The translations under genes and the position numbers were made by a program. A stretch of DNA of 64,000 nt from a virus. Taxonomy: Duplodnaviria; Caudoviricetes. Within the stretch, counting starts at the first letter, position 1. Each line of letters starts with the position of its first letter. The DNA lies in IMG/VR virus record IMGVR_UViG_3300005805_000060, positions 24,461-88,460 of that record; one strand, written 5' to 3'. The notes beneath the pieces were generated by a model. That model was not told the origin of the DNA, did not search any database, and saw nothing but the letters and a program-made list of their open reading frames with translations. Shown one piece after another: positions 20,984-53,480 of this stretch.

Positions 20984-21238
20984 TCAGTTCCAGTCTGAAT
21001 CAGAATCGTCCTCTTCAACATATTCTTCATCGTCGTCATCCCCGCGATCGTTATCAAGGTAACCTTGCAAGGCTCGTTTTAGATCTGCATCACCGGCAAA
21101 GGCTGATAACATAATATCAGGATCTGAATCATGATCGATCATGACTGCCACCACTGTCTCGGCAGCGTCAGCTCTGTCTGTGGGATTGACGTAGCGTTTG
21201 ATCTCTCGCCAGATGTCAGCAACTGTGTGTTCGGTCAT
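20984..21238 (-). CDS. Small acidic hypothetical protein
   Basis: 84 aa, between uvsX and uvsY. Confidence 0.7.
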   Translation of the reverse strand: MTEHTVADIWREIKRYVNPTDRADAAETVVAVMIDHDSDPDIMLSAFAGDADLKRALQGYLDNDRGDDDDEEYVEEDDSDSDWN

Positions 21239-22299
21239 TCATTTTCCTCTTCAAACTGAGTATCCGTACTTACCTCAGACTTGATATTTTGGAAGTCGGC
21301 CATGAGGCGGTCCAGGCAACCTTCTTCGTTGGCTTCCCAGGCTCTGCGGAACTGTTTGATCTGTGATCCGTCGCTGCCCGTAAACAGCAGTCGGTTGCCG
21401 TCCTTTTTCAGTAGGCCCTTCTTCTCTGCCATGTCCACTAGGCCCGAGTAGGGGTTCATACCAGTCTCATAGGGAATCTTGACCTGTACGCTTTCAAAAG
21501 GCTTGGCATAGCGTGTTTTCATGACCTTACAGGCAGCGCGGATACCCATGACATCAGAGATCTTGTTACCATTTTCATCTTCTTTGAGTTTGAGTTTTTT
21601 CATGGCTACCACAATACTGGATGCATAGATGAAGCCTTGACCGCCTGAAATTTTGTCGTCGGGATCAAACATGTCCTGGCTGGCATAGGTATGATTGGTA
21701 CAGACCATGCCCACGTTGTAGCTGCCAAACATGTTTACACAATTGCGCACTAGGGCAGTGAGGGCCTTGGGTTTGCGGCCCAGGTCACCTTTCATGTCCC
21801 CGGCTTCAAACTGGTTGATATCAGTGGGTGTGAGCAACATGCCCAAGCTGTCGATCACGAACAAGACCTTGGGGCGCTCGCCGTCGGCCAAGGTCTTGTA
21901 GTCGGACATAAAGGTAGAAATGGTCTTGGCCACATCGTCGATCATGGCCATGCTGAGCTTGAGCAGCTTGTTTTCGCTGGTGTCCACACCCAGTGCAGTC
22001 AACCAGGCTTCGTCCAGGGCGTTCTCAGAATCAACCAGCACAACAAAGATGCCCTGTTCCTGGGCGTTTTTGATGATGTTGCCTGAACAAAAGTAGCTCT
22101 TGCCCGCACCCGACTCACCGGCAAACACAGTGACCTTGCCCAGGGGCACTCCACGATGGAAGTCGCCTGAGATCAAGTAGTTCAGGGTGTAGTTGCCAGT
22201 TGAGATCCAGTCTGTGGGATCGTTGAAACCGATGCTTAGTCCATCGATTGATTTGGTAATTTCTTTTCTAAACCGAGAAACATCAAAAGGTTTGGCCAT
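21235..22299 (-). CDS. uvsX: RecA-like recombinase UvsX
   Basis: ISTG, FAGESGAGKS (Walker A), VDSENALD, VIDSLG, TNH, SGG, KTRY. Confidence 0.93.
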   Translation of the reverse strand: MAKPFDVSRFRKEITKSIDGLSIGFNDPTDWISTGNYTLNYLISGDFHRGVPLGKVTVFAGESGAGKSYFCSGNIIKNAQEQGIFVVLVDSENALDEAWLTALGVDTSENKLLKLSMAMIDDVAKTISTFMSDYKTLADGERPKVLFVIDSLGMLLTPTDINQFEAGDMKGDLGRKPKALTALVRNCVNMFGSYNVGMVCTNHTYASQDMFDPDDKISGGQGFIYASSIVVAMKKLKLKEDENGNKISDVMGIRAACKVMKTRYAKPFESVQVKIPYETGMNPYSGLVDMAEKKGLLKKDGNRLLFTGSDGSQIKQFRRAWEANEEGCLDRLMADFQNIKSEVSTDTQFEEENE

Positions 22300-24397: not shown

Positions 24398-26104
24398 CTA
24401 GTTTGACAAAGCCAGTCGTTTTATTTTTGCCAGATCTTCCATGAAGCTGTCTGTTACTGCGCCGCGGTGGTCCATGGCATCAGTTGAGTCCTCGTTGGGG
24501 GCTTCAAAAGTGGCCAGATTGTCACCTTCGGACATGTCATTGTCTTGCTGCGGAAACCATCGAGAAATATCAGGGTCAGAATCATCCACTGCTACCAACC
24601 GGTATGGAGCAATATACCAGCCGCGGCCGTCCTGGTCCTCAATTCGCACTCGACGGTCTTCGGGATCACCCCTCATCACAAATATCTCGCCACGGTCGCC
24701 ATCTTCCTTGTCGCGGACATATGCACCACTGTAAAGGTCTGATTCATCCTCGTTGTACTCGTCATCGTAATCATTTTCTGCCACCTGTTTGGTATCCTGC
24801 TGTCCTGGCGCCGGCTGTTGTGTGGAATCCAATGGCAAAATCTGTTCAGGTTGTTCAGGTTGTGCGGGTTGTGCGGGTTGTGCTGGCTGTTCAGACAAGT
24901 CAATACCCAATTCGCTAGCGCGACCTCGGATAACATCTCGGGCATCGGCATCGGGATCTCGGTCGGCCAATGCAGACAGGCGATCAAACAGTTCATCATC
25001 GCCAAACAGATCATAAAGTTGTTCAGTGGCGTTGGTGGCATCTGGACCCACGGGCAGTTCTTGACTCATGAGTTCTTCGAGTTTTTTCTTGTTTTCGGGC
25101 GTGTCCGGAATAGACCAAGTTCCCTCGGCCAAGTCATTGATCCAACTCTCAAAAATTTCAGCTTCTTTCATGTTGGTTCCTTGTATGCGAGCCAGGAGAG
25201 GAAGTGCTTCTTCGATTCGTTGATCTAGAGATTGCTCCACAAACAAGGTCTTGAGATCTTCTACCAGGGCATCACTCTGAGCCGATTCATCAGCAGTCCA
25301 GGTTTCAAAATAGGCATGATATCCTCGAGCATGAGCCAGTGCTCGCAGATTCTCTCGGAGATTTTGATAGTATACATCGGCACTATTGACCACTTCTTGA
25401 GTGATTCCCTCTAGAACACGACCTTGGCTGGCTCTGCGGAAACGACTCAGTAGCTTGGCTTCTTGTATTAGGTTGGCAATATGCGAACCTCGGATGTCAT
25501 AAGGACGACCACCTTGGCGCACATGTTCCAGCATAGCTCGGCCGCCTGCAAGACTCACGAAAGGCAAACGGAAACGTTCCTGATCCGCAGTTTCGATAAA
25601 CAAAGCCGCAACGTGCCGATGTCGAGCATCGCCTTCGCCTAGAGGTCGACTGTGTCGTATCATGAGTCGGGCTTCAGTGGGCTTGCCCATGTAACTGACC
25701 TGGCGTGTACCGTAATAACTTTCAAACAGTCCCTCTCGGATGGCTGCCATGCCTGCCATGGTGTGCCTGAGTTGATTGATGTTGCGTGGACTGAACGTAT
25801 GGAAATCGTGTCGTGTAGAGAACTGTTTAAGTTGTTGCAGGAATCTGAACCACTCGTCTTTGTCCTGTTCCTCCATGCCTTTACCAAGATTGTCACCAAA
25901 GAAAAGCATGAGTTCACGATCATCAGTTATCACAGCTACCGCGGTACCATAATTGGTACCTGAACTGCTGACCCAGTCAAAGCTCATGACTCGTGCCTCA
26001 GCAGGTTGACTGGGTTTGCCCTGTTGATCAGTAGTTTCGGGGTCAAACCCTCGGGTAACCAGGAGATCGTAAAGATTTTGCGGTATATTTTGTTCTTTGG
26101 CCAT
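24398..26104 (-). CDS. Probable internal head/virion protein
   Basis: 568 aa, acidic, with a QPA/QPE repeat and many [ILVM]xE motifs. Ends LAKIKRLA. TAAATA lies 7 nt before the ATG. Confidence 0.5.
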   Translation of the reverse strand: MAKEQNIPQNLYDLLVTRGFDPETTDQQGKPSQPAEARVMSFDWVSSSGTNYGTAVAVITDDRELMLFFGDNLGKGMEEQDKDEWFRFLQQLKQFSTRHDFHTFSPRNINQLRHTMAGMAAIREGLFESYYGTRQVSYMGKPTEARLMIRHSRPLGEGDARHRHVAALFIETADQERFRLPFVSLAGGRAMLEHVRQGGRPYDIRGSHIANLIQEAKLLSRFRRASQGRVLEGITQEVVNSADVYYQNLRENLRALAHARGYHAYFETWTADESAQSDALVEDLKTLFVEQSLDQRIEEALPLLARIQGTNMKEAEIFESWINDLAEGTWSIPDTPENKKKLEELMSQELPVGPDATNATEQLYDLFGDDELFDRLSALADRDPDADARDVIRGRASELGIDLSEQPAQPAQPAQPEQPEQILPLDSTQQPAPGQQDTKQVAENDYDDEYNEDESDLYSGAYVRDKEDGDRGEIFVMRGDPEDRRVRIEDQDGRGWYIAPYRLVAVDDSDPDISRWFPQQDNDMSEGDNLATFEAPNEDSTDAMDHRGAVTDSFMEDLAKIKRLALSN

Positions 26105-29071: not shown

Positions 29072-30166
29072 TTACATCACTTTGCCCTGATACCACAACA
29101 GGTTGTTTTGAAGTCGAGCATCATCGGGATGAAACTCCAGGGCCCGAGCACCCAGTTCCAAGGACTTTTCGCGCAGGCCTAGATACCAGGCAGCCATGGC
29201 CCCAAGATCGTAAGGTTCATGCCCCCAACAATCCGCATCATTGATATAAGTGGTACCGCGTACAGTGATCTCCAGCAGCTTGGATATGGCATAGTACACC
29301 GTGGTCCAGTCTCTCACATTGCGATAGGTGCGTGCCATGTCCAACCAGGGTTCTCGAGTCCAAGGACATTCTTGTGCAGCTTTTTGTGCCCAGACTTGTG
29401 CTTCATCATTGTTGCCCAGCGACGAATAACAACGAGAGATGAAACGCATGCTGGCGCATCTTTCCTCGCGCCACCAACAGCTGGGCAACTCAAGATGACG
29501 CTTGAGTTCGTCGATTGATTCTTGATAACGGCGTTGGAACATGAGTTCGCGACCATAGTAGTGACTCATACGGTCGTTGCTGGGATCTTCTTTCACGGCC
29601 TTGGCCAAGAGTCCCATGTACTGGCCACGACTCTTGGTAGGATCGGCCCTGTGATGCAATATAATTTCAGGTACTACCACTCGTCGTTCTTCACGGTTTT
29701 CCCAAAGGTACAGGGTTTCGTGGCAAGGGTGGTGCCAGATGTAACCACGACGATGATGCATTTTGTCGGCAAAAAATCGAGTACCTGGAACAGTGTCGGT
29801 GCTCCAGTTCCAGATATAATCGTAGGAAATTCGATCTATGTTACCGTCATGCTCGGCCCAGACTCGCTGTAGGGCTTCAGACCAGCCTGGTTGTAGGTAC
29901 TCGTCAAGGTCAATGCTGAGACAGAAATCAATATCGTCGGGAACTAGATTTAGAGCGGTGTTACGAGGAGCATCAAATCTCCAGGGTCGTTGCGTGATAT
30001 GGTACACCTGTGCACCCAGTTGTTCCAGGCGTTCAACAGTACCGTCGGTGCTGCCAGTATCACAGACCAAGACCAAATCTGCACCTTGACAGTGTTCCAT
30101 GAACCGATCCACATGCTTGATCTCGTTCAAGGCTATGGTATAGACACAGGTACGGGCGGGTTTCAT
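29072..30166 (-). CDS. GT2 glycosyltransferase with C-terminal TPRs
   Basis: IALNE, DTGSTDGT, WRFD..RN, IDLDE, HETL, followed by helical TPR-like repeats. Confidence 0.8.
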   Translation of the reverse strand: MKPARTCVYTIALNEIKHVDRFMEHCQGADLVLVCDTGSTDGTVERLEQLGAQVYHITQRPWRFDAPRNTALNLVPDDIDFCLSIDLDEYLQPGWSEALQRVWAEHDGNIDRISYDYIWNWSTDTVPGTRFFADKMHHRRGYIWHHPCHETLYLWENREERRVVVPEIILHHRADPTKSRGQYMGLLAKAVKEDPSNDRMSHYYGRELMFQRRYQESIDELKRHLELPSCWWREERCASMRFISRCYSSLGNNDEAQVWAQKAAQECPWTREPWLDMARTYRNVRDWTTVYYAISKLLEITVRGTTYINDADCWGHEPYDLGAMAAWYLGLREKSLELGARALEFHPDDARLQNNLLWYQGKVM

Positions 30167-33100
30167 AGTCGGATATTCTTTACAGTGAAGTTTTGATTAT
30201 GAGGACGTGGGCAGTTTTCGCAGAATTTCAGTCCACGTCGTCCACTTCGGCGCTGTAGTTGGTGCATGATTTTCTGATGCTGAGCACCAAACCACAAATC
30301 ATACAGGCAAGAATCTTGCACACGACCAAGATTGTAGTTGCCCACCATGTCATCACAACACAGTGTCACTTCGCCTCGATGATTGATTATGAACCGATCC
30401 AGCGGTTCGTTACAGGTCATGTCCTGTTTTTCAGCCAAGATATCTGTGATGTTTTTCATTGGACCATAATGTGTAAGTCCATGCAGGCTGTTTCCAAATC
30501 GAGCTTCGGTCTCATGGAACCAACTACGGATCTGGTCCTGTCGATGTTTGCGAGCAGGTTCATCAGCATAGATGCTGAAAAAGATCCAAGTCATCTTGCC
30601 ATCCAAGCGACGTGCCAGTTCCTCAGTCATAAAATCGCCGTTGCTGTGCATGAAGATAGCACGGAAAGGATACTGTGCTGCTAAGTCTACGATTTCCGGC
30701 AGGCGCGGATCCATGGTAGGCTCGTTGTAGAAACTCAAGCATAGCTCCTTGCGGAATCCCATGCTACGGGCATCATCAAATATCTGTTTGATAGTGTCCA
30801 TGGGCAACAGATTATCCTCAAACCAAGGCGCCATGCTCTCTCGATCAGGATTGCTGTTACGGATACAAGTTCCACAGGTGCGATTGCAGTTGGAACTGGT
30901 CTCTATGCTTAGGACTTCAGGCAACGGAATTGGACAGGATTCTTCGTAGTAGGCAAGGTTGTATTCCAAACGTTCATCATTGGGATTTTTTTCTATAGCT
31001 TGACGGCCCAGGGCCAATGCCTGATCATAAAATTTTAGGTGATAGGCTGATTGAGCTGCTGCGTCATAGAGTGCATGTCCCCATGCTGCGGGATCATAGG
31101 TGAAACCGTCTCTGGGTGTGGTTATTTTCAGTCCTTGCTGTGCCAGAAAATAGCAACGTTCCCAGTCTTGTCGTGCGTAGTAATAGAGAGCCCAGGCATG
31201 ATATGTTTCACGCTCACTGCTGTGATTGGTCGAAATCTGATACCAATGATTGGCTTCCGACAAATCTGCCGCAGCTTCGTAGGCCTGTGCCAAGCTACGC
31301 GCCACATAGCTTTTGACTATTTCACCTTCGTCGCAGACTTCGTAGGCCTTTTTTCTTTGTTCAATACATTCACTGAGTTGGTTTTGTGCTGCCAGTTCGT
31401 TGCTGTAGAACTGGTAGGTTCGCCAGTGCCGATCGCCCTCCTTGATCTTTTGCTCCAGGAGATTGACATAGCTACTGCGACTCTTGTCAAGATCTTGATA
31501 TTCGTCAAGATAGAACTCCGGCATCCAGATCGCGTGCTCGGGCACTTCCCAGCGTAGAGTCTCGTGTACTGCACCAGTCCAGGTACAGCCATGGCGTGCA
31601 TGTACCTTGCTATGCCACTGCCAGGCGCGGCCGTTGTTGCGATATCTATGATTGGCCACAGTGGTACCAGCTTCCCAACACTGCTCAATTTGCTGGCGCC
31701 ATCCCGGTAAGAGACGCTCATCTAGATCTTGCCAGATGCAGACATCAATATCCGGGGGCAAGAGATTGAGACTGGTTTCACGAGCCACATCAAATCGCCA
31801 GGGCAGTACAGATATTGGTATCATGTTGACTCCACACTGCACCAGTTTTTCTCGTGTGCCATCTGTACTACCAGTGTCACATACCAGACGATAATCGGCT
31901 TCACTGTTACTGGCGGCCCAGTCCGCTACATTCTCACTTTCATTCTTGCAGATAGTGTAAATGGCTATGCGTAATCGAGCAAACTCGGCACGAAACTGCT
32001 CATCTCGACTGAGCAGATAAACCCCAATCTCCTCATCAATATGGCCAGACACAATGTCACGGCCAAATGTGGCTCGTACTTCTTGATCACTCCAGTCATC
32101 TTTGACATGACGCTCGTAAGGGTTGCCTTCGAATTCATTCTGGGGCATGCGCACTACAGGAATACTGATGATCATGCACTGGTGGTGAGTCAGAACCGAA
32201 TTGACCAAATCCTGCGCTTCAGATTGAGTCATGTGTTCTAGGATGTCACCGGCAAACACCATGTCATACCACTTCGGCAAGTTGCCATAATCGACTTCGC
32301 GTGCATCACTGGAGAATATCTCGTTGTATTTTTGTGTCAGCTGATATCGTTCAATATAAGGAGTCCAGACTTCTATAGCGTCCCAATTGGCCGCGGGAAA
32401 CAACCCACCAAAATAGTTGTAATAAGTTCCTGCGCCTGCTCCAATATCCAGCACATGACGAACCTGTATACGGTCCGCTATACGTCGACACTGCTGCTGT
32501 ATCCATGTTTTGCCACGTTCGCTACTGGTTGGCATAATGATCCTTGATCGATAAGGCCTGCATATTTCAGCAAGATTACTGTTAGATTTATCAAGATTTT
32601 CAGGAGTTGCTGCAGAAAGATAATCACGCCAGATGGTTTCCCATAAGTGCATGGTGTAACTGTTCTGCAACTGATCTAGATCTTGACGATTGTTCTCAAG
32701 AACCCAGGTCTCTTGAAAGTCAAAGGGCATGAAACTGCTACGTGGTTCCAGCCGCACATCTGGCCAATCGTGACTGCTGTAAATCTCATGGGGCAGACAA
32801 ACACCGTGCCAGGCCCAGGGACGATCCTGCAGATTGCGTCCAGTTTCCTCTAACCACTGGGAGACAAACGGATGTCCAGGGCGGGTCAGAATCACAGCGT
32901 TGGTTATGCTGGTACCATCACGGTTCTCCACGCCCAATACACAGGATTCGTTCCAGAGATCACCAAAACTCTTGAGGCTGATCACATCAATGTCTAGATA
33001 AGCACCGCCCTGCTCTTGCAAGATTTGCAGACGCAGCACATCGGCCTTGTACTGATAACTGTCAAGCGGAACTCCGACAAATTCTTGAGGAGGATCTACA

Positions 33101-33297
33101 TGTACCAGTTCCACTTGCGTGGCTATTTCATCCCACCAATCGTTGTTGACTGGTGCCTGAGAATAGTAGAGGCGCACCGGAACCTGATGCACCTTAAGGG
33201 CTGATTTTACTGCCAGGTAATGTATGTACTGAAATTCAGTAAAGCCAAAAAAGATAAAATGTATGACTCGAGGTATCATACCTGTTGCGCCCACCAC
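30163..33297 (-). CDS. Multi-enzyme fusion: GT32-like, methyltransferase, GT2-TPR, radical SAM/SPASM
   Basis: KADVLRL..GGAYLDID; LDIGAGAG..GDILEH; DTGSTDGT..QDLDE..VHETL; CNRTCGTC; CCDD..CENC. Confidence 0.85.
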   Translation of the reverse strand: MVGATGMIPRVIHFIFFGFTEFQYIHYLAVKSALKVHQVPVRLYYSQAPVNNDWWDEIATQVELVHVDPPQEFVGVPLDSYQYKADVLRLQILQEQGGAYLDIDVISLKSFGDLWNESCVLGVENRDGTSITNAVILTRPGHPFVSQWLEETGRNLQDRPWAWHGVCLPHEIYSSHDWPDVRLEPRSSFMPFDFQETWVLENNRQDLDQLQNSYTMHLWETIWRDYLSAATPENLDKSNSNLAEICRPYRSRIIMPTSSERGKTWIQQQCRRIADRIQVRHVLDIGAGAGTYYNYFGGLFPAANWDAIEVWTPYIERYQLTQKYNEIFSSDAREVDYGNLPKWYDMVFAGDILEHMTQSEAQDLVNSVLTHHQCMIISIPVVRMPQNEFEGNPYERHVKDDWSDQEVRATFGRDIVSGHIDEEIGVYLLSRDEQFRAEFARLRIAIYTICKNESENVADWAASNSEADYRLVCDTGSTDGTREKLVQCGVNMIPISVLPWRFDVARETSLNLLPPDIDVCIWQDLDERLLPGWRQQIEQCWEAGTTVANHRYRNNGRAWQWHSKVHARHGCTWTGAVHETLRWEVPEHAIWMPEFYLDEYQDLDKSRSSYVNLLEQKIKEGDRHWRTYQFYSNELAAQNQLSECIEQRKKAYEVCDEGEIVKSYVARSLAQAYEAAADLSEANHWYQISTNHSSERETYHAWALYYYARQDWERCYFLAQQGLKITTPRDGFTYDPAAWGHALYDAAAQSAYHLKFYDQALALGRQAIEKNPNDERLEYNLAYYEESCPIPLPEVLSIETSSNCNRTCGTCIRNSNPDRESMAPWFEDNLLPMDTIKQIFDDARSMGFRKELCLSFYNEPTMDPRLPEIVDLAAQYPFRAIFMHSNGDFMTEELARRLDGKMTWIFFSIYADEPARKHRQDQIRSWFHETEARFGNSLHGLTHYGPMKNITDILAEKQDMTCNEPLDRFIINHRGEVTLCCDDMVGNYNLGRVQDSCLYDLWFGAQHQKIMHQLQRRSGRRGLKFCENCPRPHNQNFTVKNIRL

Positions 33298-35180: not shown

Positions 35181-35813
35181 TTAAACCTGCACGACCGTGA
35201 CTATGACCGAGGGTACCAGAGGACCAGGGCCTTCACTGGGCAGTGCTACAATGTCAATTCCGGCAAAACTGCTCCACCAAGCCAACTTCACATGGTCACC
35301 GGCTTGCAAGGGCTCAACATAGTTCCAACCAACAATCACTTTGGTATTGTTGCCCGTAAACGTCACAGCACCACCGGAGTCAGGCACCGTGACACCATTT
35401 TTTTCCAGCCATACTTCCATGTTGTGTGTGCCACCGCCCACTTGTATGAATTGTGTGCTGAATTGGATATCATAAACACCGGTAAAATCCACAGTGATCT
35501 CGTCACTATTGACAATGCTCACATGATTATTGCTGGAGGTCGTGTTCAACTGCATGTAGTTGACGTTGCCGGTGTCGTTGTTTTGATTGGTAGTGTCGTA
35601 GAATGAACCATAAAATTTTGTTGCATTAGCATTGGCCAAGAGAACAAGATCACCGTTGTTGTCGCCCACAAAAAGATTAAGTGCATTTTGTTCTACTACC
35701 AATTCAGCAGGTCTGGCATTGCCATCATATTGGACCACAGTGACCTGTGCGTTGTCCTTCATGGCCGCGCGACTGATACCGGTGATATCCGAGTAAGGCG
35801 GCGGGATGGCCAT
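35181..35813 (-). CDS. Probable virion protein with a C1q/BclA-like beta-sandwich C-terminus
   Basis: FYGSFYDTT...TGVYDIQFS..WL.KNG..V....L.AGD.V. Confidence 0.5.
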   Translation of the reverse strand: MAIPPPYSDITGISRAAMKDNAQVTVVQYDGNARPAELVVEQNALNLFVGDNNGDLVLLANANATKFYGSFYDTTNQNNDTGNVNYMQLNTTSSNNHVSIVNSDEITVDFTGVYDIQFSTQFIQVGGGTHNMEVWLEKNGVTVPDSGGAVTFTGNNTKVIVGWNYVEPLQAGDHVKLAWWSSFAGIDIVALPSEGPGPLVPSVIVTVVQV

Positions 35814-36202
35814 TATCTAGGATACCCCGAAAATGGTTTTATGGGGCTGGTCTTGTTCACTGTGTTCATTTCCTCGCTGCGCATGTCCCCATGATTGAGG
35901 TCACGATATTCAGCACCCGCGGCTCGATAGGCCAACTTGAGCATGTCCTGTTCTTCCTGGGTATAGGGGTGTGCAGTTTTTCCCTTTCCTACCCAACTGG
36001 TTTGATCCATTTCCGGCGGTGTCTTACCATCGGTAGCTGCCACTGCCATCATCACGCGATTCAGAGTGTAATCAGAATTCCAATTGGACGTGCCGCCGGC
36101 ATCACGACCAGTGTCACTGAAAACATTGAGTCCCCGTGTGGCCATCTGACGGCGTGCGCCTAATACGCCACGGTCTTCCTTGATAAAGTCACGGGCTCTC
36201 AT
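35813..36202 (-). CDS. Hypothetical protein (late cluster)
   Basis: 129 aa starting MRARDFIKE. Confidence 0.65.
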   Translation of the reverse strand: MRARDFIKEDRGVLGARRQMATRGLNVFSDTGRDAGGTSNWNSDYTLNRVMMAVAATDGKTPPEMDQTSWVGKGKTAHPYTQEEQDMLKLAYRAAGAEYRDLNHGDMRSEEMNTVNKTSPIKPFSGYPR

Positions 36203-36210
36203 GTTGGGTA

Positions 36211-36498
36211 TCAGCTGCCTGCGCCAATTACACCAGCAGTGGCCGAGCTTGCTGTGCCCAATTCAAGAGCCGTCACGTTGGCAGTGGTTTCAATGGTAAC
36301 ATGGTTTCCTGCACCAGAATAAAGATCATAACTGCCAGCAGGATAACCAATGGGTTGACTGTATAGGTTACCCACGGCATTGGCCGAGCCAAGTGCCACT
36401 GCATAGACCTGATAGGTAAAAGGGCCATCACAATTGACTCGCAATTTATCAGTATAAACTGTGGCATTGGCCAAGGTGTAATATACGTTTGCAGCCAT
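36211..36498 (-). CDS. Small probable virion protein
   Basis: 95 aa, beta-rich, tightly packed in the late operon. Confidence 0.6.
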   Translation of the reverse strand: MAANVYYTLANATVYTDKLRVNCDGPFTYQVYAVALGSANAVGNLYSQPIGYPAGSYDLYSGAGNHVTIETTANVTALELGTASSATAGVIGAGS

Positions 36499-36674
36499 TA
36501 TGTTTGATCCTTGTTGTTGGGTCCGCGATAGGGTTGATACAATCGCCTGGTTTGATCTAATACCCCAGGAATATCTACCGCTGCGGTTCGCGGAGTAGGT
36601 TGCACCGGCACTGTGCGATGTAGATCCTTCGGCGGTTGATTGTGTATGTTAGAGTATATTTTGTCCACTGACAT
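36498..36674 (-). CDS. Small hypothetical protein
   Basis: Fills the gap. The ATG directly follows the upstream stop. Confidence 0.5.
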   Translation of the reverse strand: MSVDKIYSNIHNQPPKDLHRTVPVQPTPRTAAVDIPGVLDQTRRLYQPYRGPNNKDQT

Positions 36675-36676
36675 GA

Positions 36677-37672
36677 TTACCAGGCCCTGCATGACCAATA
36701 GCGGGCTTTATGTCTCGGTCCTGGGTTTGCACAATTATGCCGAGCTCGAAAATTTTTTCTTCTCTTGGGATTTGACTTCTTGATTTTCATGGTCTTGTCA
36801 CCAAAGTTAACCTTGACCACATTGCCCTTGGGTCCTCGCACATAGACCTTGCTCTTTTTGACATCACCTTGCATGGGTTTGCCCAAGGGTACTTCACGAC
36901 CTTGATACTTGGCTTCGTCCATCATGGGTTCGTCGTCGTACTGTTCAGCGTCCAGTTGATTGGCATAGTCATGGTCGTTGTCTTCTTCATGGTCGCGCAT
37001 GTCCAGGAACAGCTCGCTGATGGCTTCAATTTTGTCTGAATCAATTCCTTCGCGTTGCAGGAACTTGTCCACCATGGCCAGGAACATGTCGTCGTCAATA
37101 TCACGCGGGATGTTGTGACGTTCCTGGAACTCGTAGTAGAGATCGTTGACCCAGTTCTTGGCGGCACCTTCTTGTACTGCGGGCATGGCTGCTGGTGGCA
37201 TACCAGCCAACTCTTGTAGGCGTCGTAGGTCATCCAAGCCTTCCGCCATGCCTTGCTTTTTCAATTCAATGCTGGTTATATTCTTTAGTCCTTGCTGTTT
37301 GGCTAATTCTCTAGCATGGCCTAGACTCTTGGCTGTAATAGTGCTTCCGAGCCGTTCAGAACCATCAGTGTCTTGAATATACACTTTGTATTCCTGCTGT
37401 TTTTTACCCTCCGCCATGCCTTCCTCAAACTCTTCGGCACTGGGCGGGCTGATCTCACGGCGATAGGGATCTGCTGTTTCCAGCATGCCGTAGCTTTCCA
37501 AGATCCGCATCATGTGTTCATCAGCTGCCAAGACCACACTGTCTTCTGTGACATCTACGATGTGACTTTCTACCAGGCATTCCTCACGGATGTTGATGGC
37601 AAAGTCGTCGCCCACAGCCGGGCTGTTGACCCAGGCTGCGCTTTCTTGCATGTAGTCTTGTAGTTGTTTCAT
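36677..37672 (-). CDS. Probable internal head protein, modular
   Basis: Starts MKQLQDYMQES, has repeated xxE sites, and ends in a basic KVNFGD...RARHNC...ARYWSC domain. Confidence 0.6.
   Translation of the reverse strand: MKQLQDYMQESAAWVNSPAVGDDFAINIREECLVESHIVDVTEDSVVLAADEHMMRILESYGMLETADPYRREISPPSAEEFEEGMAEGKKQQEYKVYIQDTDGSERLGSTITAKSLGHARELAKQQGLKNITSIELKKQGMAEGLDDLRRLQELAGMPPAAMPAVQEGAAKNWVNDLYYEFQERHNIPRDIDDDMFLAMVDKFLQREGIDSDKIEAISELFLDMRDHEEDNDHDYANQLDAEQYDDEPMMDEAKYQGREVPLGKPMQGDVKKSKVYVRGPKGNVVKVNFGDKTMKIKKSNPKRRKNFRARHNCANPGPRHKARYWSCRAW
37239..37422 (-). repeat. 16-bp direct repeats (GMAEG codons) flanking a 56-codon AT-rich insert
   Basis: Plus strand CCTTCCGCCATGCCTT at 37239-37254 and CCCTCCGCCATGCCTT at 37407-37422: one mismatch, 168 bp apart, in frame. 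Confidence 0.85.
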
Positions 37673-37675
37673 GAG

Positions 37676-40441
37676 TTAGGCCTTGTATTGCTGCCAGAGT
37701 CGACGCATGTTCAAGATGCTCTCTTCCACTTTCTCGTCGTCCTTGTCGTCGGCTGCTTTTTTCATAGGCTCTGTCTTGTCGCCGTCCTTGTCAATGTCTA
37801 GAAAGTCAGGCTTGGCTTCCTGGATGCCGGCCAGGCTCTGCATGCGTTGGATACTTTCGTATGCGCTGTCTTCGCCAGAGTGGCTGGTTTCGTGCAGAGA
37901 ATCGTGTGCTGCTTGATGTACTATGTCGCTGTTCTCTTGCTCAAATTCAGCCAACTCGTCATCAGACAAGGGAGTACCATCAGTATACTCGGCTCGGGAT
38001 AGGTATGCATCTACCAGGTCAGGATAGTCCCGGGTGTCAACTCCGTCCACTTCCAAGGATGTTACATCAACCATCTTGCCACGGAACGGAATCCCGTCCT
38101 GATCATCTTCGGATACACGCACCGCTGTTACAGGCACTGTGGTCTGTCCTGCACCGGCCACATCAGTCTTGGGCTTGTTGAGTCCACCCGAGTATTGCAG
38201 CGCATCATCTGACTGTGCAGTATTGGTAGGCCAGTCAGGTTGATTTTCATCTACCATTTTGGAGTGCATGCAAGGTGTAGTTCCGCAACCACAGTCGCTA
38301 CCCTGGCTGTCGCCACCAATACCGGCATTGCGTAGCAGTTCCTTGAGACGTCCAGCATCTTCATCTGTGGCAGTCACAGTGACTGAATCGCCACCTTCGG
38401 TGCTGCTGTTGATGTTCACGCTCATGCTTTCTGAGATCATCTGTTCCAGTTCACGGTTCAGGCTGTCGTAGATACCTCTACCAAACTGCATGCCACCCTT
38501 CTTGGGTGCCGCAGCCGGCGCAGTAGCGACCGAACCTGACGTGGTAGTTTCTTCCACGTCCTCGGCACCTTTCTTTTTCTTGGGCAGGCCTTTTTCCTTG
38601 GTGGTTGCGAACTTGTGCAATTCACCCTTGCTCATCTTGGCCATCTCTCGTGATGCACCGCGCAGTTCTGACTTGGGCAGATCACCTTTTTTGGCTGCGT
38701 ATGCAATACCTGCTGCTGCACGCTGAGACTTGCTGACTGCTTTTTCAGCCACTGGCTCTACGCTGTCTTTCTGTGCCTTCATGTAGTCACGGGCAGTGTC
38801 AAGATAGTCCACGGCCATGGTGATCTTTTTCTGTACCCACTCAGGCAAGTTCTCGTCAGCATCAAGAATACTACGAAGTTCAGCCGCAGCCTCTTTGGCA
38901 GTGCTCAGCTGATCGTGCGCCATGTCGCCTTCTTGATCGTATTCACCTTGATCTACAGGATCGATGTCAGTTTCAGCAATGGCACCTTTTTTCAACAGTT
39001 TGCTCGTGAAGCCGGGGCCCTTGGCGCCAATGCTACGACCAGTGCCTTTGGGTCGACCACGCTTGCGCGGTGCGTCTGTGGCTGACTTGGTCTTGCTGCG
39101 GGGTGAGTCCTCATCATCCTCGTCGTCAGTTTCTTGGCGTGCGCCGCCATAGGCACGACCTGCCACAAAGCGAGTTGATGCCTTCTGTTCTTCTTCGCCG
39201 CGCTCACGACGTTCGGCTTCTCGGCGATCGCGCAGGTCATCGATCTTGCCTTCTTCCATTTCTTTCTTGGCTAGATTTTTACCGGCTCCAACTCTAGTAA
39301 CTTTGTTATCAAAATTTGGGTCCATTTGTCTATGAGATGGTTGCTGTTCAACGCCGCCCGGCAATGAATCTGTTCTTGTAGGCACAACACCACCGCCACC
39401 GCGAGTGGGTTTTGCCGATTGAGAACCAAATTTGTCATATTTTGAAGCTGTAGCAGATTGCCGTTGATCCGCTCTATTTTTCCTCACTGTGGCAGCAAGC
39501 TCATCACGTTCCCCTTGATTTGCCGGCGGACGATATCCTCGATTTCCAACAGTTTGTACACGAAGTGCTTCTTCCATGTTGCCTTCGTTGGCTGAATGAT
39601 GTTTTTTGGCCTGGCGGGCAGCCTGTTTCATGGGTTCGGTCTTGTTGCCGTCCCGGTCTAGGTCGATGTAATCAGGTTTGGCCGCTTTCGCCGCGCCGAT
39701 CCGGCCCTCACTGATAGAATCCAGTTGATCTAACATAGTTCGCATGTTGCGATTTTCGTACATAGCATCCTCGCTTAAAATTTTATCAATAATCTTTTTG
39801 CCACCATACAGCAATGCAACAACGATACCAATTGGTAAAGCATATTTGACTGCCATTCCTGCCAGGGCCATAAGAGTGTTGCTATCAACAGTATCGCCTA
39901 TTTTATCTGCCAGTGCAGCTGAGGCTCCCCTGACATCGTTGTAGACTTCTCCCACGCCTCCAGACACCGAGCTGGCTAGATCGGTCAAGGCACTGTATAC
40001 ACCAACACCTGCACCAATTGGCAATGCATTCTTGGCTGCAATCTCTGCTCCCTGCCTGGCCACTTGCCCGGCGCCCTTTGCAGCTACTCCCGCTCCCTGT
40101 CTCGCAACAGGTGCAGCAGCACGACCTGCGCGACTCAGGGCCGGACCTATCCTTGACAACAACGGAATCAACGCACGAGCGCCAGCTGCCAAGGCCAGGG
40201 GTGCAATTTCATTGACCATGGTATCTTCGGTCGTCTCGTCTGGGCCGCCCAGCTTGCGCCCCAGAGGCGCACCTATCGCACCACCCACGGTGGCACCAAC
40301 AGGTCCGCCCATAGCAGCACCAGCCAATGCGCCACCAACTCCTCCTGCAATTTCTCCCTTGATACCTTCAGTGATCTGTTTTTTAGATTTGGCGTTTTCT
40401 AGGTCGGCCAATCGCTTGTTTAAGTCGTAAAAGAAAGTCAT
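37676..40441 (-). CDS. Large modular probable internal head (ejected) protein
   Basis: 921 aa from ATG 40441 (GAGGA SD). More than 12 [ILVM]xE motifs, two DxDxDG repeats, and a glycine-zipper segment. Confidence 0.6.
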   Translation of the reverse strand: MTFFYDLNKRLADLENAKSKKQITEGIKGEIAGGVGGALAGAAMGGPVGATVGGAIGAPLGRKLGGPDETTEDTMVNEIAPLALAAGARALIPLLSRIGPALSRAGRAAAPVARQGAGVAAKGAGQVARQGAEIAAKNALPIGAGVGVYSALTDLASSVSGGVGEVYNDVRGASAALADKIGDTVDSNTLMALAGMAVKYALPIGIVVALLYGGKKIIDKILSEDAMYENRNMRTMLDQLDSISEGRIGAAKAAKPDYIDLDRDGNKTEPMKQAARQAKKHHSANEGNMEEALRVQTVGNRGYRPPANQGERDELAATVRKNRADQRQSATASKYDKFGSQSAKPTRGGGGVVPTRTDSLPGGVEQQPSHRQMDPNFDNKVTRVGAGKNLAKKEMEEGKIDDLRDRREAERRERGEEEQKASTRFVAGRAYGGARQETDDEDDEDSPRSKTKSATDAPRKRGRPKGTGRSIGAKGPGFTSKLLKKGAIAETDIDPVDQGEYDQEGDMAHDQLSTAKEAAAELRSILDADENLPEWVQKKITMAVDYLDTARDYMKAQKDSVEPVAEKAVSKSQRAAAGIAYAAKKGDLPKSELRGASREMAKMSKGELHKFATTKEKGLPKKKKGAEDVEETTTSGSVATAPAAAPKKGGMQFGRGIYDSLNRELEQMISESMSVNINSSTEGGDSVTVTATDEDAGRLKELLRNAGIGGDSQGSDCGCGTTPCMHSKMVDENQPDWPTNTAQSDDALQYSGGLNKPKTDVAGAGQTTVPVTAVRVSEDDQDGIPFRGKMVDVTSLEVDGVDTRDYPDLVDAYLSRAEYTDGTPLSDDELAEFEQENSDIVHQAAHDSLHETSHSGEDSAYESIQRMQSLAGIQEAKPDFLDIDKDGDKTEPMKKAADDKDDEKVEESILNMRRLWQQYKA
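39250..39577 (-). repeat. 10-bp direct repeats (ATGGAAGAAG, MEE) flanking a 106-codon AT-richer insert
   Basis: Plus strand CTTCTTCCAT at 39250-39259 and 39568-39577, 318 bp apart, in frame. Confidence 0.7.
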
Positions 40442-40445
40442 TGTG

Positions 40446-41054
40446 TTATCCTCTAGGCTGTGCGCTGGTAGCCGGTTTGGGCGGACGTTTGACCCTGCTG
40501 AAGGGACTGGTAGTGCCTTGAGGCAGATCATTGGTAGTTTTGGCAGCAGGAGTTTTGCCCCCGGCCACTGTGAAATCTGAACGATACTGATTCTTCAAGA
40601 CCACATGATCGTGTGCTTCGGCTCCGTGGTCTTTCTTGAGAGCATTTTGCTCGGAAGAGTTGGCAGGGTAGTCAGTATCCTTGAGTAGATCTTTGTTTTG
40701 ATCTTCAATCTTTTCGTACTCATCCACCATGCTATCATTGTAGTCACGTGTGTTCATGACCACGCGATTGGGATCAAACCCCAGGATCTGCATGATCTGC
40801 TTGATCTGTGGTTCAATTGCCGGATAGCGAAAGCTGACATCAAACATGCTCATGCTTTCGTTCTTAAAATTGGGGAAATCTGTGGGTATGGCCTGTATAG
40901 GCGTGGTCTTGATGTCGCCCAAGCGAACAGGATCAAATTGATCCAGTCTCTGCTTGAGTTGGCGTACCAGGTCCTCTGGCACTTTGCCGCACATTTTGAT
41001 GCGGTAATCGTATGTGCGCTCACTTTCTGCTAGATACTTTGCAAATGGTTTCAT
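40446..41054 (-). CDS. Hypothetical protein with a capsid-targeting-like N-terminus
   Basis: Starts MKPFAKYLAES, with TAAATA upstream. Confidence 0.65.
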   Translation of the reverse strand: MKPFAKYLAESERTYDYRIKMCGKVPEDLVRQLKQRLDQFDPVRLGDIKTTPIQAIPTDFPNFKNESMSMFDVSFRYPAIEPQIKQIMQILGFDPNRVVMNTRDYNDSMVDEYEKIEDQNKDLLKDTDYPANSSEQNALKKDHGAEAHDHVVLKNQYRSDFTVAGGKTPAAKTTNDLPQGTTSPFSRVKRPPKPATSAQPRG

Positions 41055-52955: not shown

Positions 52956-53480
52956 ATGCATATATACAGAATTACTAATATCGTCAATAACAAAATGTAC
53001 ATTGGACAAACCATACAAAAAAATCCTAAGATGCGTTGGTATGATCATTGTGCTAGAACTAGAAATGGACAACACAATCATCTATACAATAGTATGAGAT
53101 TGTACGGCGTTGATAAGTTTGTTTGGGAAGTAATTGATTCGGCCACTAGTCTCGATGAATTGAATACTAAAGAACAATATTGGCTAGATGAGTATAGAAA
53201 AACTACCGAAGTTTATAATCTCAGAGAAGCCGGAAATAATAAAACTCATAGCGAGCAGTCTAAAGAAAAAATGAAAGAGTCTCAGAGACAGGCCCATGCT
53301 CGTAGACGAGCCAAAGGTACTGATACCTGGGTCCGTCGAGATGGCGGTGCTATGAAGGGGAAATCACACCCTAAAAAAGGTAAACCAAGTAAAAAATGGA
53401 GCGACGAAGCTAAAGCTCGATTATCATTGATTGTTAAAGAACGCGAAGCAAGAAAAAAACTTGCCGCCAGGGAGAATTAA
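52956..53480 (+). CDS. GIY-YIG homing endonuclease with NUMOD3-like tail
   Basis: HIYRITNIVNNKMYIGQT, R..H, E..W, YN, HSEQSKEKMKES. AT-rich. Confidence 0.9.
   Translation: MHIYRITNIVNNKMYIGQTIQKNPKMRWYDHCARTRNGQHNHLYNSMRLYGVDKFVWEVIDSATSLDELNTKEQYWLDEYRKTTEVYNLREAGNNKTHSEQSKEKMKESQRQAHARRRAKGTDTWVRRDGGAMKGKSHPKKGKPSKKWSDEAKARLSLIVKEREARKKLAAREN

Follow-up and report, generated by a model that had tools for sequence, protein, structure and literature searches.

An in-frame cassette bounded by a codon-locked linker in genes of aquatic T4-type phages, with a possible second role of the linker as a protease site

What does a short DNA repeat do when it stands twice, in frame, within a single phage gene and encloses a segment that looks foreign to that gene? 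The question is raised by P0001, a gene of 331 amino acids (aa) in a tailed virus (Duplodnaviria; Caudoviricetes) known from the IMG/VR record IMGVR_UViG_3300005805_000060. The stretch analyzed covers positions 24,461 to 88,460 of that record; these 64,000 nucleotides (nt) are called the window hereafter, and coordinates refer to the window unless another locus is named. An earlier note, made from the sequence alone, had proposed that the repeat is both a recombination handle and the code for a protease cleavage site, by which small cargo domains would be swapped into a head protein without an integrase, cut free in the capsid, and injected. The first half of this proposal has held up well: the segment is a discrete cassette, it is exchanged at the repeat (called the linker below), and linker DNA is conserved beyond what the encoded peptide needs. 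The second half, in which the linker is a protease site of a packaged and injected protein, is plausible only.

A foreign cassette between two in-frame repeats

The repeat, AAGGCATGGCGGA[G/A]GG, is present in two minus-strand copies that lie in frame, 168 nt (56 codons) apart, which confirms the original description. Within the window, the 16-mer AAGGCATGGCGGARGG has exactly two copies, at 37239-37254 and 37407-37422; both lie on the minus strand, and 100 shuffles of the window predict none. A relaxed linker pattern run across the whole 88,460-bp record matched only those two copies. Their translation is GMAEG, which takes up residues 85-89 and 141-145 of P0001. The gene is laid out as follows (a slash marks a predicted cut):

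36677..37672, minus strand: host gene P0001, 331 aa, defined by its open reading frame (ORF) and translation, homologues, an alignment, and 35 IMG/VR loci with the same ends
37643..37672, minus strand: N-terminus MKQLQDYMQE/S, residues 1-10, which resembles the T4 capsid targeting sequence (CTS); predicted first protease site
37421..37642, minus strand: conserved acidic N-domain, residues 11-84 (alignment A1)
37406..37422, minus strand: 5' linker GAA GGC ATG GCG GAG GGT, encoding E-GMAEG, residues 84-89 (repeat search)
37253..37405, minus strand: cassette, residues 90-140, a basic beta-beta-alpha-beta mini-domain (composition, homologues, model)
37238..37254, minus strand: 3' linker CAA GGC ATG GCG GAA GGC, encoding Q-GMAEG, residues 140-145 (repeat search)
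36914..37237, minus strand: residues 146-253, with the LDDLRRLQELAGMP helix, a helical acidic domain, and MMDE/A, a predicted site of the T4 Glu-Ala type (AlphaFold)
36680..36913, minus strand: conserved basic C-domain, residues 254-331, isoelectric point (pI) 11.2, phrog_7595 (profile match)

AlphaFold models the N-domain with a predicted local distance difference test (pLDDT) score of 70-84 for residues 1-65 and below 50 for residues 67-89, a predicted disordered tail, and places helices at residues 142-155 and 167-245 (pLDDT up to 95). Both linkers fall in low-confidence stretches that flank confident domains. P0001 matches no Pfam family at E <= 0.01 and its parts match none at E <= 1; the N-domain has no Pfam or PHROG family, and phrog_7595, whose function is not annotated, is the only family match of the protein, by way of the C-domain.

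The segment between the repeats is AT-richer than its surroundings, as had been noticed at the outset: its GC content is 39.2% vs 51.5% in the rest of the gene, and at third codon positions (GC3) 35% vs 59%, over the 51 residues first quoted. A protein-guided scan of IMG/VR recovered the same cassette in two other contigs, L167 and L168, within other host proteins and at G[VM]AE[DA] borders, which supports the earlier proposal. In L167, it is part of a different multi-module ORF and stands between QQ-GMAED and KKQ-GVAED. There, the cassette DNA is 95% identical to that of P0001 (137/144), whereas outside the linkers the flanks match at 24/72 and 22/75 nt, the level of random sequence. In L168, a 905-aa ORF of about a dozen modules includes the cassette, between GQ-GVAEA and KK-GVAEA, with 109/143 identical nucleotides. 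Identity with L167 drops to ~30% exactly at the linkers, which supports the claim that the insert is a discrete cassette bounded by them. All three copies have a GC content of 37-39%, while the host ORFs of L167 and L168 are at 42-45% and the window gene at 51.5%; because the cassette fits the former better, import from a lower-GC lineage into the window phage is suggested.

When 1.8 billion representative proteins were searched exhaustively with HMMER, the cassette had 17 matches. Ten of them are free-standing proteins of 50-87 aa, aligned from their second residue to near their end, and another is an internal segment of a 736-aa protein. Since the free-standing homologues align end to end, the cassette is a complete small gene that was captured in frame. 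On these comparisons, the segment is a mobile foreign module. Its AlphaFold model is a confident beta-beta-alpha-beta mini-domain (pLDDT 84.8), which has no Pfam or PHROG family and no Foldseek match in the PDB at E <= 0.001. The ratio of nonsynonymous to synonymous substitution rates between the window and L167 copies is ~0.42, on seven differences, too few to interpret. A reading of the cassette as an intein, intron, or transposon was rejected: the ORF is continuous, the 51 residues contain no endonuclease or splicing motif, and no integrase is present on the 88-kb record.

One of the free-standing homologues, P0124 (NCBI GCA_041443025.1, a 4.6-kb contig), lies in a run of small genes whose products include an Acb3-family protein, a weak match to a Lar-like restriction-alleviation protein, and a nucleoside deoxyribosyltransferase. 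This context is at most a hint of an anti-host role.

Exchange at a codon-locked linker

Through its basic C-domain, P0001 has thousands of relatives. A narrower family has the N-terminal ~65-85 residues and the C-terminal ~80 residues in common, with lengths of 150-757 aa, and was followed in the 35 IMG/VR loci listed above. In its shortest member (L033, 150 aa) the N-domain is fused directly to the C-domain, while longer members carry one to at least five unrelated segments between the fixed ends; the complete T4-like phage C48C1 has a minimal 105-aa form that consists of a CTS-like leader and the C-domain (MKKFKQYIDE...LTE/AEYQG), and Pelagibacter phage HTVC008M has a relative. Members of the narrower family are positional orthologues, since they stand in the same synteny: a tube-like gene, a gp4-like head-completion gene, a 202-aa gene, a DUF3008 protein of ~910-950 aa, and then the host gene.

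The C-domain by itself (..KVYVxxPxGNVVKVxFGD..RRKSFRARHNC..ARYWSC..W) has no Pfam family and is found in at least about 8000 proteins, from pelagiphages, roseophages, phages of Methylophilales and Flavobacterium, and spindle-shaped viruses of Nitrosopumilaceae, in marine and fresh water.

Exchange is visible in three near-identical marine alleles (L004, L044, and L045), which are 97-100% identical in DNA on both sides of the insert and ~30% identical between the linkers. At nucleotide resolution, their shared 5' sequence stops at ...TTTGAAGAAG[GT/AC]GTGGCGGAAG, and identity resumes on the 3' side at [C/G]AAGGTGTGGCGGAAGG or, in one allele, at GGCATAGAGGAA (GIEES). More generally, the orthologues, the window included, have at least six different fillings after the SPPSxEEFEE site, with homology breaking at the linker, so that the expectation of different inserts at one site is borne out. 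In some relatives the linker stands directly before the xELxRIQELAG helix, or FEE directly before the linker. A metagenome census of the SPPSxEEFEE junction returned only alleles already known. Of the outcomes that the earlier note had named as speaking against it, the data contradict the first two, an identical insert in all orthologues and a cassette found nowhere else. Its proposal of exchange without an integrase also agrees with the gene content: no tyrosine integrase (PF00589) was found on the 88-kb record, itself a fragment, and the record encodes a UvsX/RecA-type recombinase (PF00154). Together, these data leave us highly confident that the segment is a cassette and that exchange takes place at the linker.

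In longer relatives, (Q/E)-G-[V/M]-A-E-[G/A] marks the borders between unrelated segments, with three copies in L005, four in L006, and twelve linker-like motifs in the 905-aa ORF of L168. P0001 fits this type of protein, in which unrelated modules are joined in frame by (Q/E)G[V/M]AE[G/A] with canonical DNA near GGT GTG GCG GAA GG. The DNA of the linker is nearly fixed, as [C/G]AA GGT GTG GCG GAA GG[C/T]. In loci picked by N-domain similarity, the linker Ala codon is GCG in 20/24 cases vs 7% of the other Ala codons of the same genes, and the linker Val codon is GTG in 15/16 vs a background of 34%. ORFs retrieved with two other patterns, for which only linkers not selected by the retrieval pattern were counted, show the same lock: GCG is present in 61/68 and 62/70 linkers (vs 15% and 7% background), GGT in 65/68 and 64/70, and the exact 12-mer GGTGTGGCGGAA in 43/68 and 49/70. 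In addition, the fetched loci contain 250 canonical 16-mers, and for 243 of these the longest of the six frames is the one that reads GVAEG. Conservation of linker DNA beyond the need of the peptide is thus supported across loci by the GCG and 12-mer statistics. Such a lock would result from continual homogenization by recombination, from selection for homology, or from recognition by an enzyme; any of these would produce it. The window linkers belong to a minor variant, GGC ATG GCG GAR GG (Met is found in ~8% of linkers), while relatives of P0001 and the other hosts of the cassette carry the canonical form.

The linker as a candidate protease site

The T4 CTS is MKTYQEFIAE (PMC8442874), in which positions 4 and 7 serve targeting and positions 8 and 10 processing; the T4 protease gp21 cuts after Glu in L/I-x-E, and Glu-Ala is the bond first found for T4 gp22 (PMC9026906). 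The leader of P0001, MKQLQDYMQE/S, has L4, Y7, M8, and E10 and so fits the T4-type pattern; in T4, processing is blocked by Asp at CTS position 10. Among 128 distinct family members, L or F stands at position 4 in 128/128, Y at position 7 in 123/128, I or L at position 8 in 123/128 (Met in 1/128), and E at position 10 in 117/128. These are the 128 of 142 candidates that passed a loose leader-motif filter, and the statistics are partly circular because that motif helped define the set. Before the C-domain, Ala follows the invariant Glu in 128/128 members, and the third residue before the cut (P3) is M, L, I, or V in 92/128. The linker, V/M-A-E/G, fits the same pattern of hydrophobic-x-E/small as the leader and the C-domain site. 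In P0001, the four predicted cut sites, YMQE/S, GMAE/G (twice), and MMDE/A, all have Met at P3 (residues 8, 86, 142, and 251). Co-variation of Met at P3 with GMAEG linkers was considered and discarded: L015 has GMAEG and Leu at CTS position 8.

CTS-like N-termini are scarce in the window. Only 3 of its 169 ATG-started ORFs match the pattern, and all three lie in a 5-kb cluster (35813-41054, minus strand) around a large modular gene. They are P0001 (MKQLQDYMQE), a 202-aa gene (MKPFAKYLAE), and a 129-aa gene (MRARDFIKE), and the cluster looks like a set of internal-protein genes beside neck and tail genes. The features concerned, together with the recombinase gene mentioned above, are:

40446..41054, minus strand: 202-aa gene with N-terminus MKPFAKYLAE/S, phrog_14802 'virion structural protein' (CTS-like pattern and PHROG match)
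37676..40531, minus strand: modular protein, 921-951 aa, with a glycine-zipper segment and DUF3008, adjoining the host gene
35813..36202, minus strand: 129-aa gene with N-terminus MRARDFIKE/D (CTS-like pattern)
21235..22299, minus strand: UvsX/RecA-type recombinase (PF00154 match at G000:45917-46675, i.e., 21457-22215 of the window)

Across the fetched loci, CTS-like N-termini are fourfold enriched in linker-bearing ORFs (27/174 vs 75/1711 in other ORFs, p = 1.4e-7). A gp21-type protease (Peptidase S77 / PF03420) was detected in 5/5 tested records with a family member and in 5/10 other linker-bearing records, mostly fragments (10/15 in all). The related record G003, which is near-complete, has a head module in T4 order, with portal, acidic core protein (starting MNKFEQLIE), protease (L395, 6331-6954), scaffold, and capsid protein, and L/V-x-E sites are found in the capsid-protein propeptide and throughout the scaffold. 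Finally, the predicted products of P0001 alternate in charge, with pI values of 4.1 for the N-domain, 9.4 for the cassette (computed with linker remnants), 4.05 for the middle part, and 11.2 for the C-domain. This alternation would fit retention of the basic pieces with the DNA, as for the basic T4 internal proteins.

The reading that we favor, and hold to be fairly probable, is that P0001 is an internal-protein-like cargo protein with a linker-exchanged cassette, cut in the prohead. Several observations weigh against it, in whole or in part. The documented P3 residues of T4 are L/I, while those of the linker are V/M. Only 15.5% of linker-bearing ORFs have a CTS-like N-terminus, as scored with our own regular expression and crude start calls. 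No protease, portal, or capsid gene was found on the 88-kb record, a fragment rated 25% complete (CheckV). A record of 342,865 bp rated 99% complete (L099, IMGVR_UViG_3300032268_000986) carries a canonical linker ORF, and neither Pfam profiles nor the proteins of G003 detected a T4-type protease, portal, or major capsid gene there; its head module is either missing from the record or too diverged. On the side of exchange, the earlier note had stated that removal of one repeat and the insert would be seamless; relatives do show matching junctions on either side, but an empty allele, FEE-G[VM]AEG followed by QELAG within 9-30 nt, had no match in IMG/VR or JGI metagenomes. Within P0001, the two linkers agree at 2/4 silent positions and differ at the other two, and 11/16 bases of AAGGCATGGCGGARGG are set by the peptide GMAEG. 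For these reasons, the DNA repeat of this gene is mostly a repeated peptide motif, and selection at the DNA level is not demonstrable from P0001 alone; as far as the sequences compared indicate, that constraint is visible only across many phages. Contig counts were dropped as evidence, because a synonymous control with GCA was as abundant among the matches listed as the GMAEG variant and the canonical 16-mer were, each in at least about 118-120 contigs. As for the cargo, the best VIA-align scores of the cassette (Z 6.2 with PaaB and 5.8 with T7 Gp2; AcrIE2, p56, and Dmd lower) are within the tool's 'common arrangement' range and thus generic, and no function was drawn from them. The label 'effector' for the cassette is a guess, with no family and only a generic fold behind it.

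With these points set against the leader, site, and protease data, the part of the reading in which the linker is a protease site and the protein is packaged and injected is plausible, with a chance that we put at even or slightly above. Its most serious competitor is that the linker acts solely as a joint for recombination and as a flexible spacer. The protein would then stay whole, whether packaged or not, and the likeness to a protease site would be a coincidence. The evidence for exchange at the linker all holds without cleavage, and G-x-A-E-G is plausible as a flexible, soluble spacer, in agreement with the low AlphaFold confidence there; the undocumented V/M at P3 and the large linker-bearing record with no detectable T4-type protease point the same way. 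However, a spacer needs no invariant Glu with a hydrophobic residue two positions earlier, whereas [hydrophobic]-x-E/small recurs at the leader and before the C-domain, where the Ala after Glu is without exception. Moreover, linker-bearing ORFs are enriched for CTS-like leaders and occur in phages with gp21-type proteases. We consider this explanation unlikely, although it deserves to be taken seriously.

The codon lock admits another explanation, in which cassettes are moved not by general homologous recombination but by a dedicated enzyme (a homing endonuclease, nickase, or site-specific recombinase) that recognizes the linker. Conservation of the DNA, including a rare codon, far past the requirement of the peptide would be expected of such a site, and a 231-aa GIY-YIG gene overlaps the 3' end of the host gene in L004, L044, and L045. 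However, across 3.4 Mb of fetched loci that gene lies beside none of the other linker-bearing ORFs, and it is not adjacent to P0001 in the window, a test of adjacency that is weak because a single endonuclease query was used; in addition, no integrase is present on the record, and homology alone can explain the breakpoints. A dedicated enzyme is thus improbable. The GIY-YIG gene lies at 3108-3803 in L044, 1561-2256 in L045, and 4214-4906 in L004; these near-identical marine alleles next to it differ only by their cassette, and a distant GIY-YIG homologue is found in the window at 52956-53480.

That the repeat is a local accident (an internal duplication, slippage, or chance) around a native segment, as its two copies in the record and the five residues that dictate most of the 16-mer might suggest, can be dismissed, given that chance predicts no copies, that the composition of the segment is strongly unlike that of the rest of the gene, that another phage has, in an unrelated gene, a module with 95% DNA identity to it, and that free-standing homologues exist.

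A proposed mechanism and its place among known systems

In the favored reading of a cargo protein cut in the prohead, P0001 would be built as a series of modules, which starts with the CTS-like leader and the acidic N-domain, continues with the imported basic mini-domain of 51 aa and the helical acidic domain, and ends in the strongly basic C-domain. The mini-domain is a small phage gene in its entirety, which this phage would have acquired in frame from a phage lineage of lower GC content, through recombination at (Q/E)-G-[V/M]-A-E-[G/A] that relied on homology or microhomology. The phage's own UvsX-type machinery probably drives this exchange, either by a double crossover or by integration of a circular cassette with one linker, which would leave the linker duplicated. 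The same linker joins unrelated modules throughout a very large population of aquatic phages, its DNA nearly letter-fixed. The leader would target P0001 to the scaffolding core of the prohead, and a gp21-type protease would then cut after Glu at YMQE/S, at GMAE/G (twice), and at MMDE/A. The basic pieces, i.e., the cassette and the C-domain, may remain with the DNA and enter the host, and the acidic pieces may exit the capsid like scaffold fragments. In its most complete form, the proposal is that the linker is dual-coded: its peptide would be a prohead-protease site that frees the modules, and its DNA a codon-locked homology handle for integrase-free, in-frame cargo swapping among aquatic T4-type giant phages, like an integron at the protein level. 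This full combination is tentative, and we rate its chances as a little below even.

The closest comparison is with the internal proteins of T4, IPI, IPII, IPIII, and Alt (PMC9026906, PMC8442874, PMC3012670). Like P0001, these have a ten-residue leader that ends in hydrophobic-x-Glu; like the P0001 family, they have diverse, fast-evolving cargo behind a conserved leader, with some basic products, and a gp21-type protease is common to T4 and relatives of the P0001 phage. Fusion to the T4 CTS is enough for any protein to be packaged and injected (PMC8442874). However, T4 internal proteins carry a single cargo and are cut once, whereas ORFs of the P0001 type hold several unrelated modules with a repeated internal linker. 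That linker, DNA-conserved across many phages and marking exchange points, has no counterpart in the T4 proteins, and P0001 has no Pfam or PHROG match to the IPI, IPII, IPIII, or Alt families. The resemblance would thus be one of mechanism and leader, not of family.

In T4-type phages, gene shuffling at promoter-early stem-loop elements (PeSLs) has been described (Arbiol et al., 2010, PMC2839356; Comeau et al., 2014, PMC4122927). Like the linker, a PeSL is short and conserved, has its own primary function, and offers the homology by which small accessory genes flanked by it are inserted, deleted, or replaced with no integrase involved; for PeSLs, circular intermediates of the cassettes have been shown, and the authors liken the arrangement to integrons (PMC2839356, PMC4122927). 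PeSLs differ in that they are intergenic, combine a promoter with a stem-loop over ~50 nt, and move whole genes, whereas the linker is 15-18 nt long, lies within an ORF, is bound to the frame, and codes for a peptide. The joints of P0001 lie inside one continuous ORF and not at an intergenic sigma-70-like early promoter with a stem-loop; the system resembles PeSL shuffling in operation but is no PeSL.

Integron cassettes carry attC sites and are moved by the tyrosine integrase IntI. They share with the P0001 type the use of small, promoterless cassettes at a recurring site, an expression platform, and distribution among genomes. However, the joint of P0001 is a 16-nt coding repeat with no attC-like structure, it is not an imperfect palindrome, and the cassette is inserted in frame and expressed within a polypeptide; moreover, the 88-kb record (a fragment) has no PF00589 match.

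Polyvalent proteins (Iyer et al., 2017, PMC5512222) are also multi-domain, predicted to be delivered with the DNA, made of unrelated anti-host modules, and sometimes released by proteolysis. They are defined by known domains (MPTase, ART, ParB, helicase, etc.), with embedded peptidases and no reported universal codon-locked linker; P0001 has no Pfam family, and thus none of the two or more recognized conflict domains of that class. In the giant phages phiKZ, 201phi2-1, and SPN3US, gp21-related proteases cut many internal head proteins after Glu, at multiple sites in each (PMC5694885, PMC9026906). There, the three-residue motif is S/A/G-x-E and cleavage is mostly propeptide removal, with no DNA-level joint or cassette exchange described. 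None of the known systems compared here has an in-frame, codon-locked peptide linker as its exchange unit. We found no published description of such a linker-cassette system, and no phage paper with the 'GVAEG' motif in the open-access literature, where the occurrences of this string are unrelated.

The surroundings of P0001 agree with a virion-related locus: the gene stands among tail, neck, and head-completion genes, and the window encodes sheath, tube, neck, and head-completion proteins. Judged by this gene content, the phage is a T4-type myovirus; because its record is rated 25% complete and related complete records measure 315-344 kb, it is taken to be a giant phage. The adjoining protein at 37676..40531 has modules in common with members of the host family. 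It also contains an in-frame 10-mer repeat of its own, ATGGAAGAAG (MEE/A, MEE/G), at 39250-39259 and 39568-39577 on the minus strand; the copies are 318 nt apart and enclose a 106-codon segment, and the window has 3 matches vs 0.18 expected. Just downstream of the CTS-like gene cluster, a 1044-aa ORF (30163-33297, minus strand) seems by eye to be a fusion of glycosyltransferase-like, methyltransferase-like, and radical-SAM-like parts. In P0001 itself, the LDDLRRLQELAGMP helix (residues 146-160, 37190-37237, minus strand) resembles the C-terminus of a related phage's scaffold, which ends in ..VIDLKRLAGL (L395, 6964-8052), and many linker-bearing ORFs end in similar motifs, ..RILKLSGLAK or ..LDRLKELSGMKK, directly before the stop codon. 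Such a terminal motif may be a shell- or portal-binding tag.

The window is a modest instance of the type, with one cassette and variant linkers, yet it holds an unusually clean recent transfer, in which a cassette of 95% identity lies between unrelated flanks. If the favored reading is true, it would describe a general route to load arbitrary small proteins into the capsid for delivery with the DNA, and would extend the ideas of T4 internal proteins and PeSLs to in-frame shuffling. It would also provide a natural rule for predicting injected proteins (CTS-like leader, linker, module), and the modules between linkers would form a ready catalogue of autonomous mini-domains. The T4 CTS system is already in use for packaging foreign proteins (PMC8442874), and that field would take an interest in a naturally occurring multi-cargo system whose release sites are defined. 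For the phages themselves, it would mean that cargo is traded as protein domains instead of genes, which would help explain the diversification of early host-takeover or anti-defense factors in giant aquatic phages.

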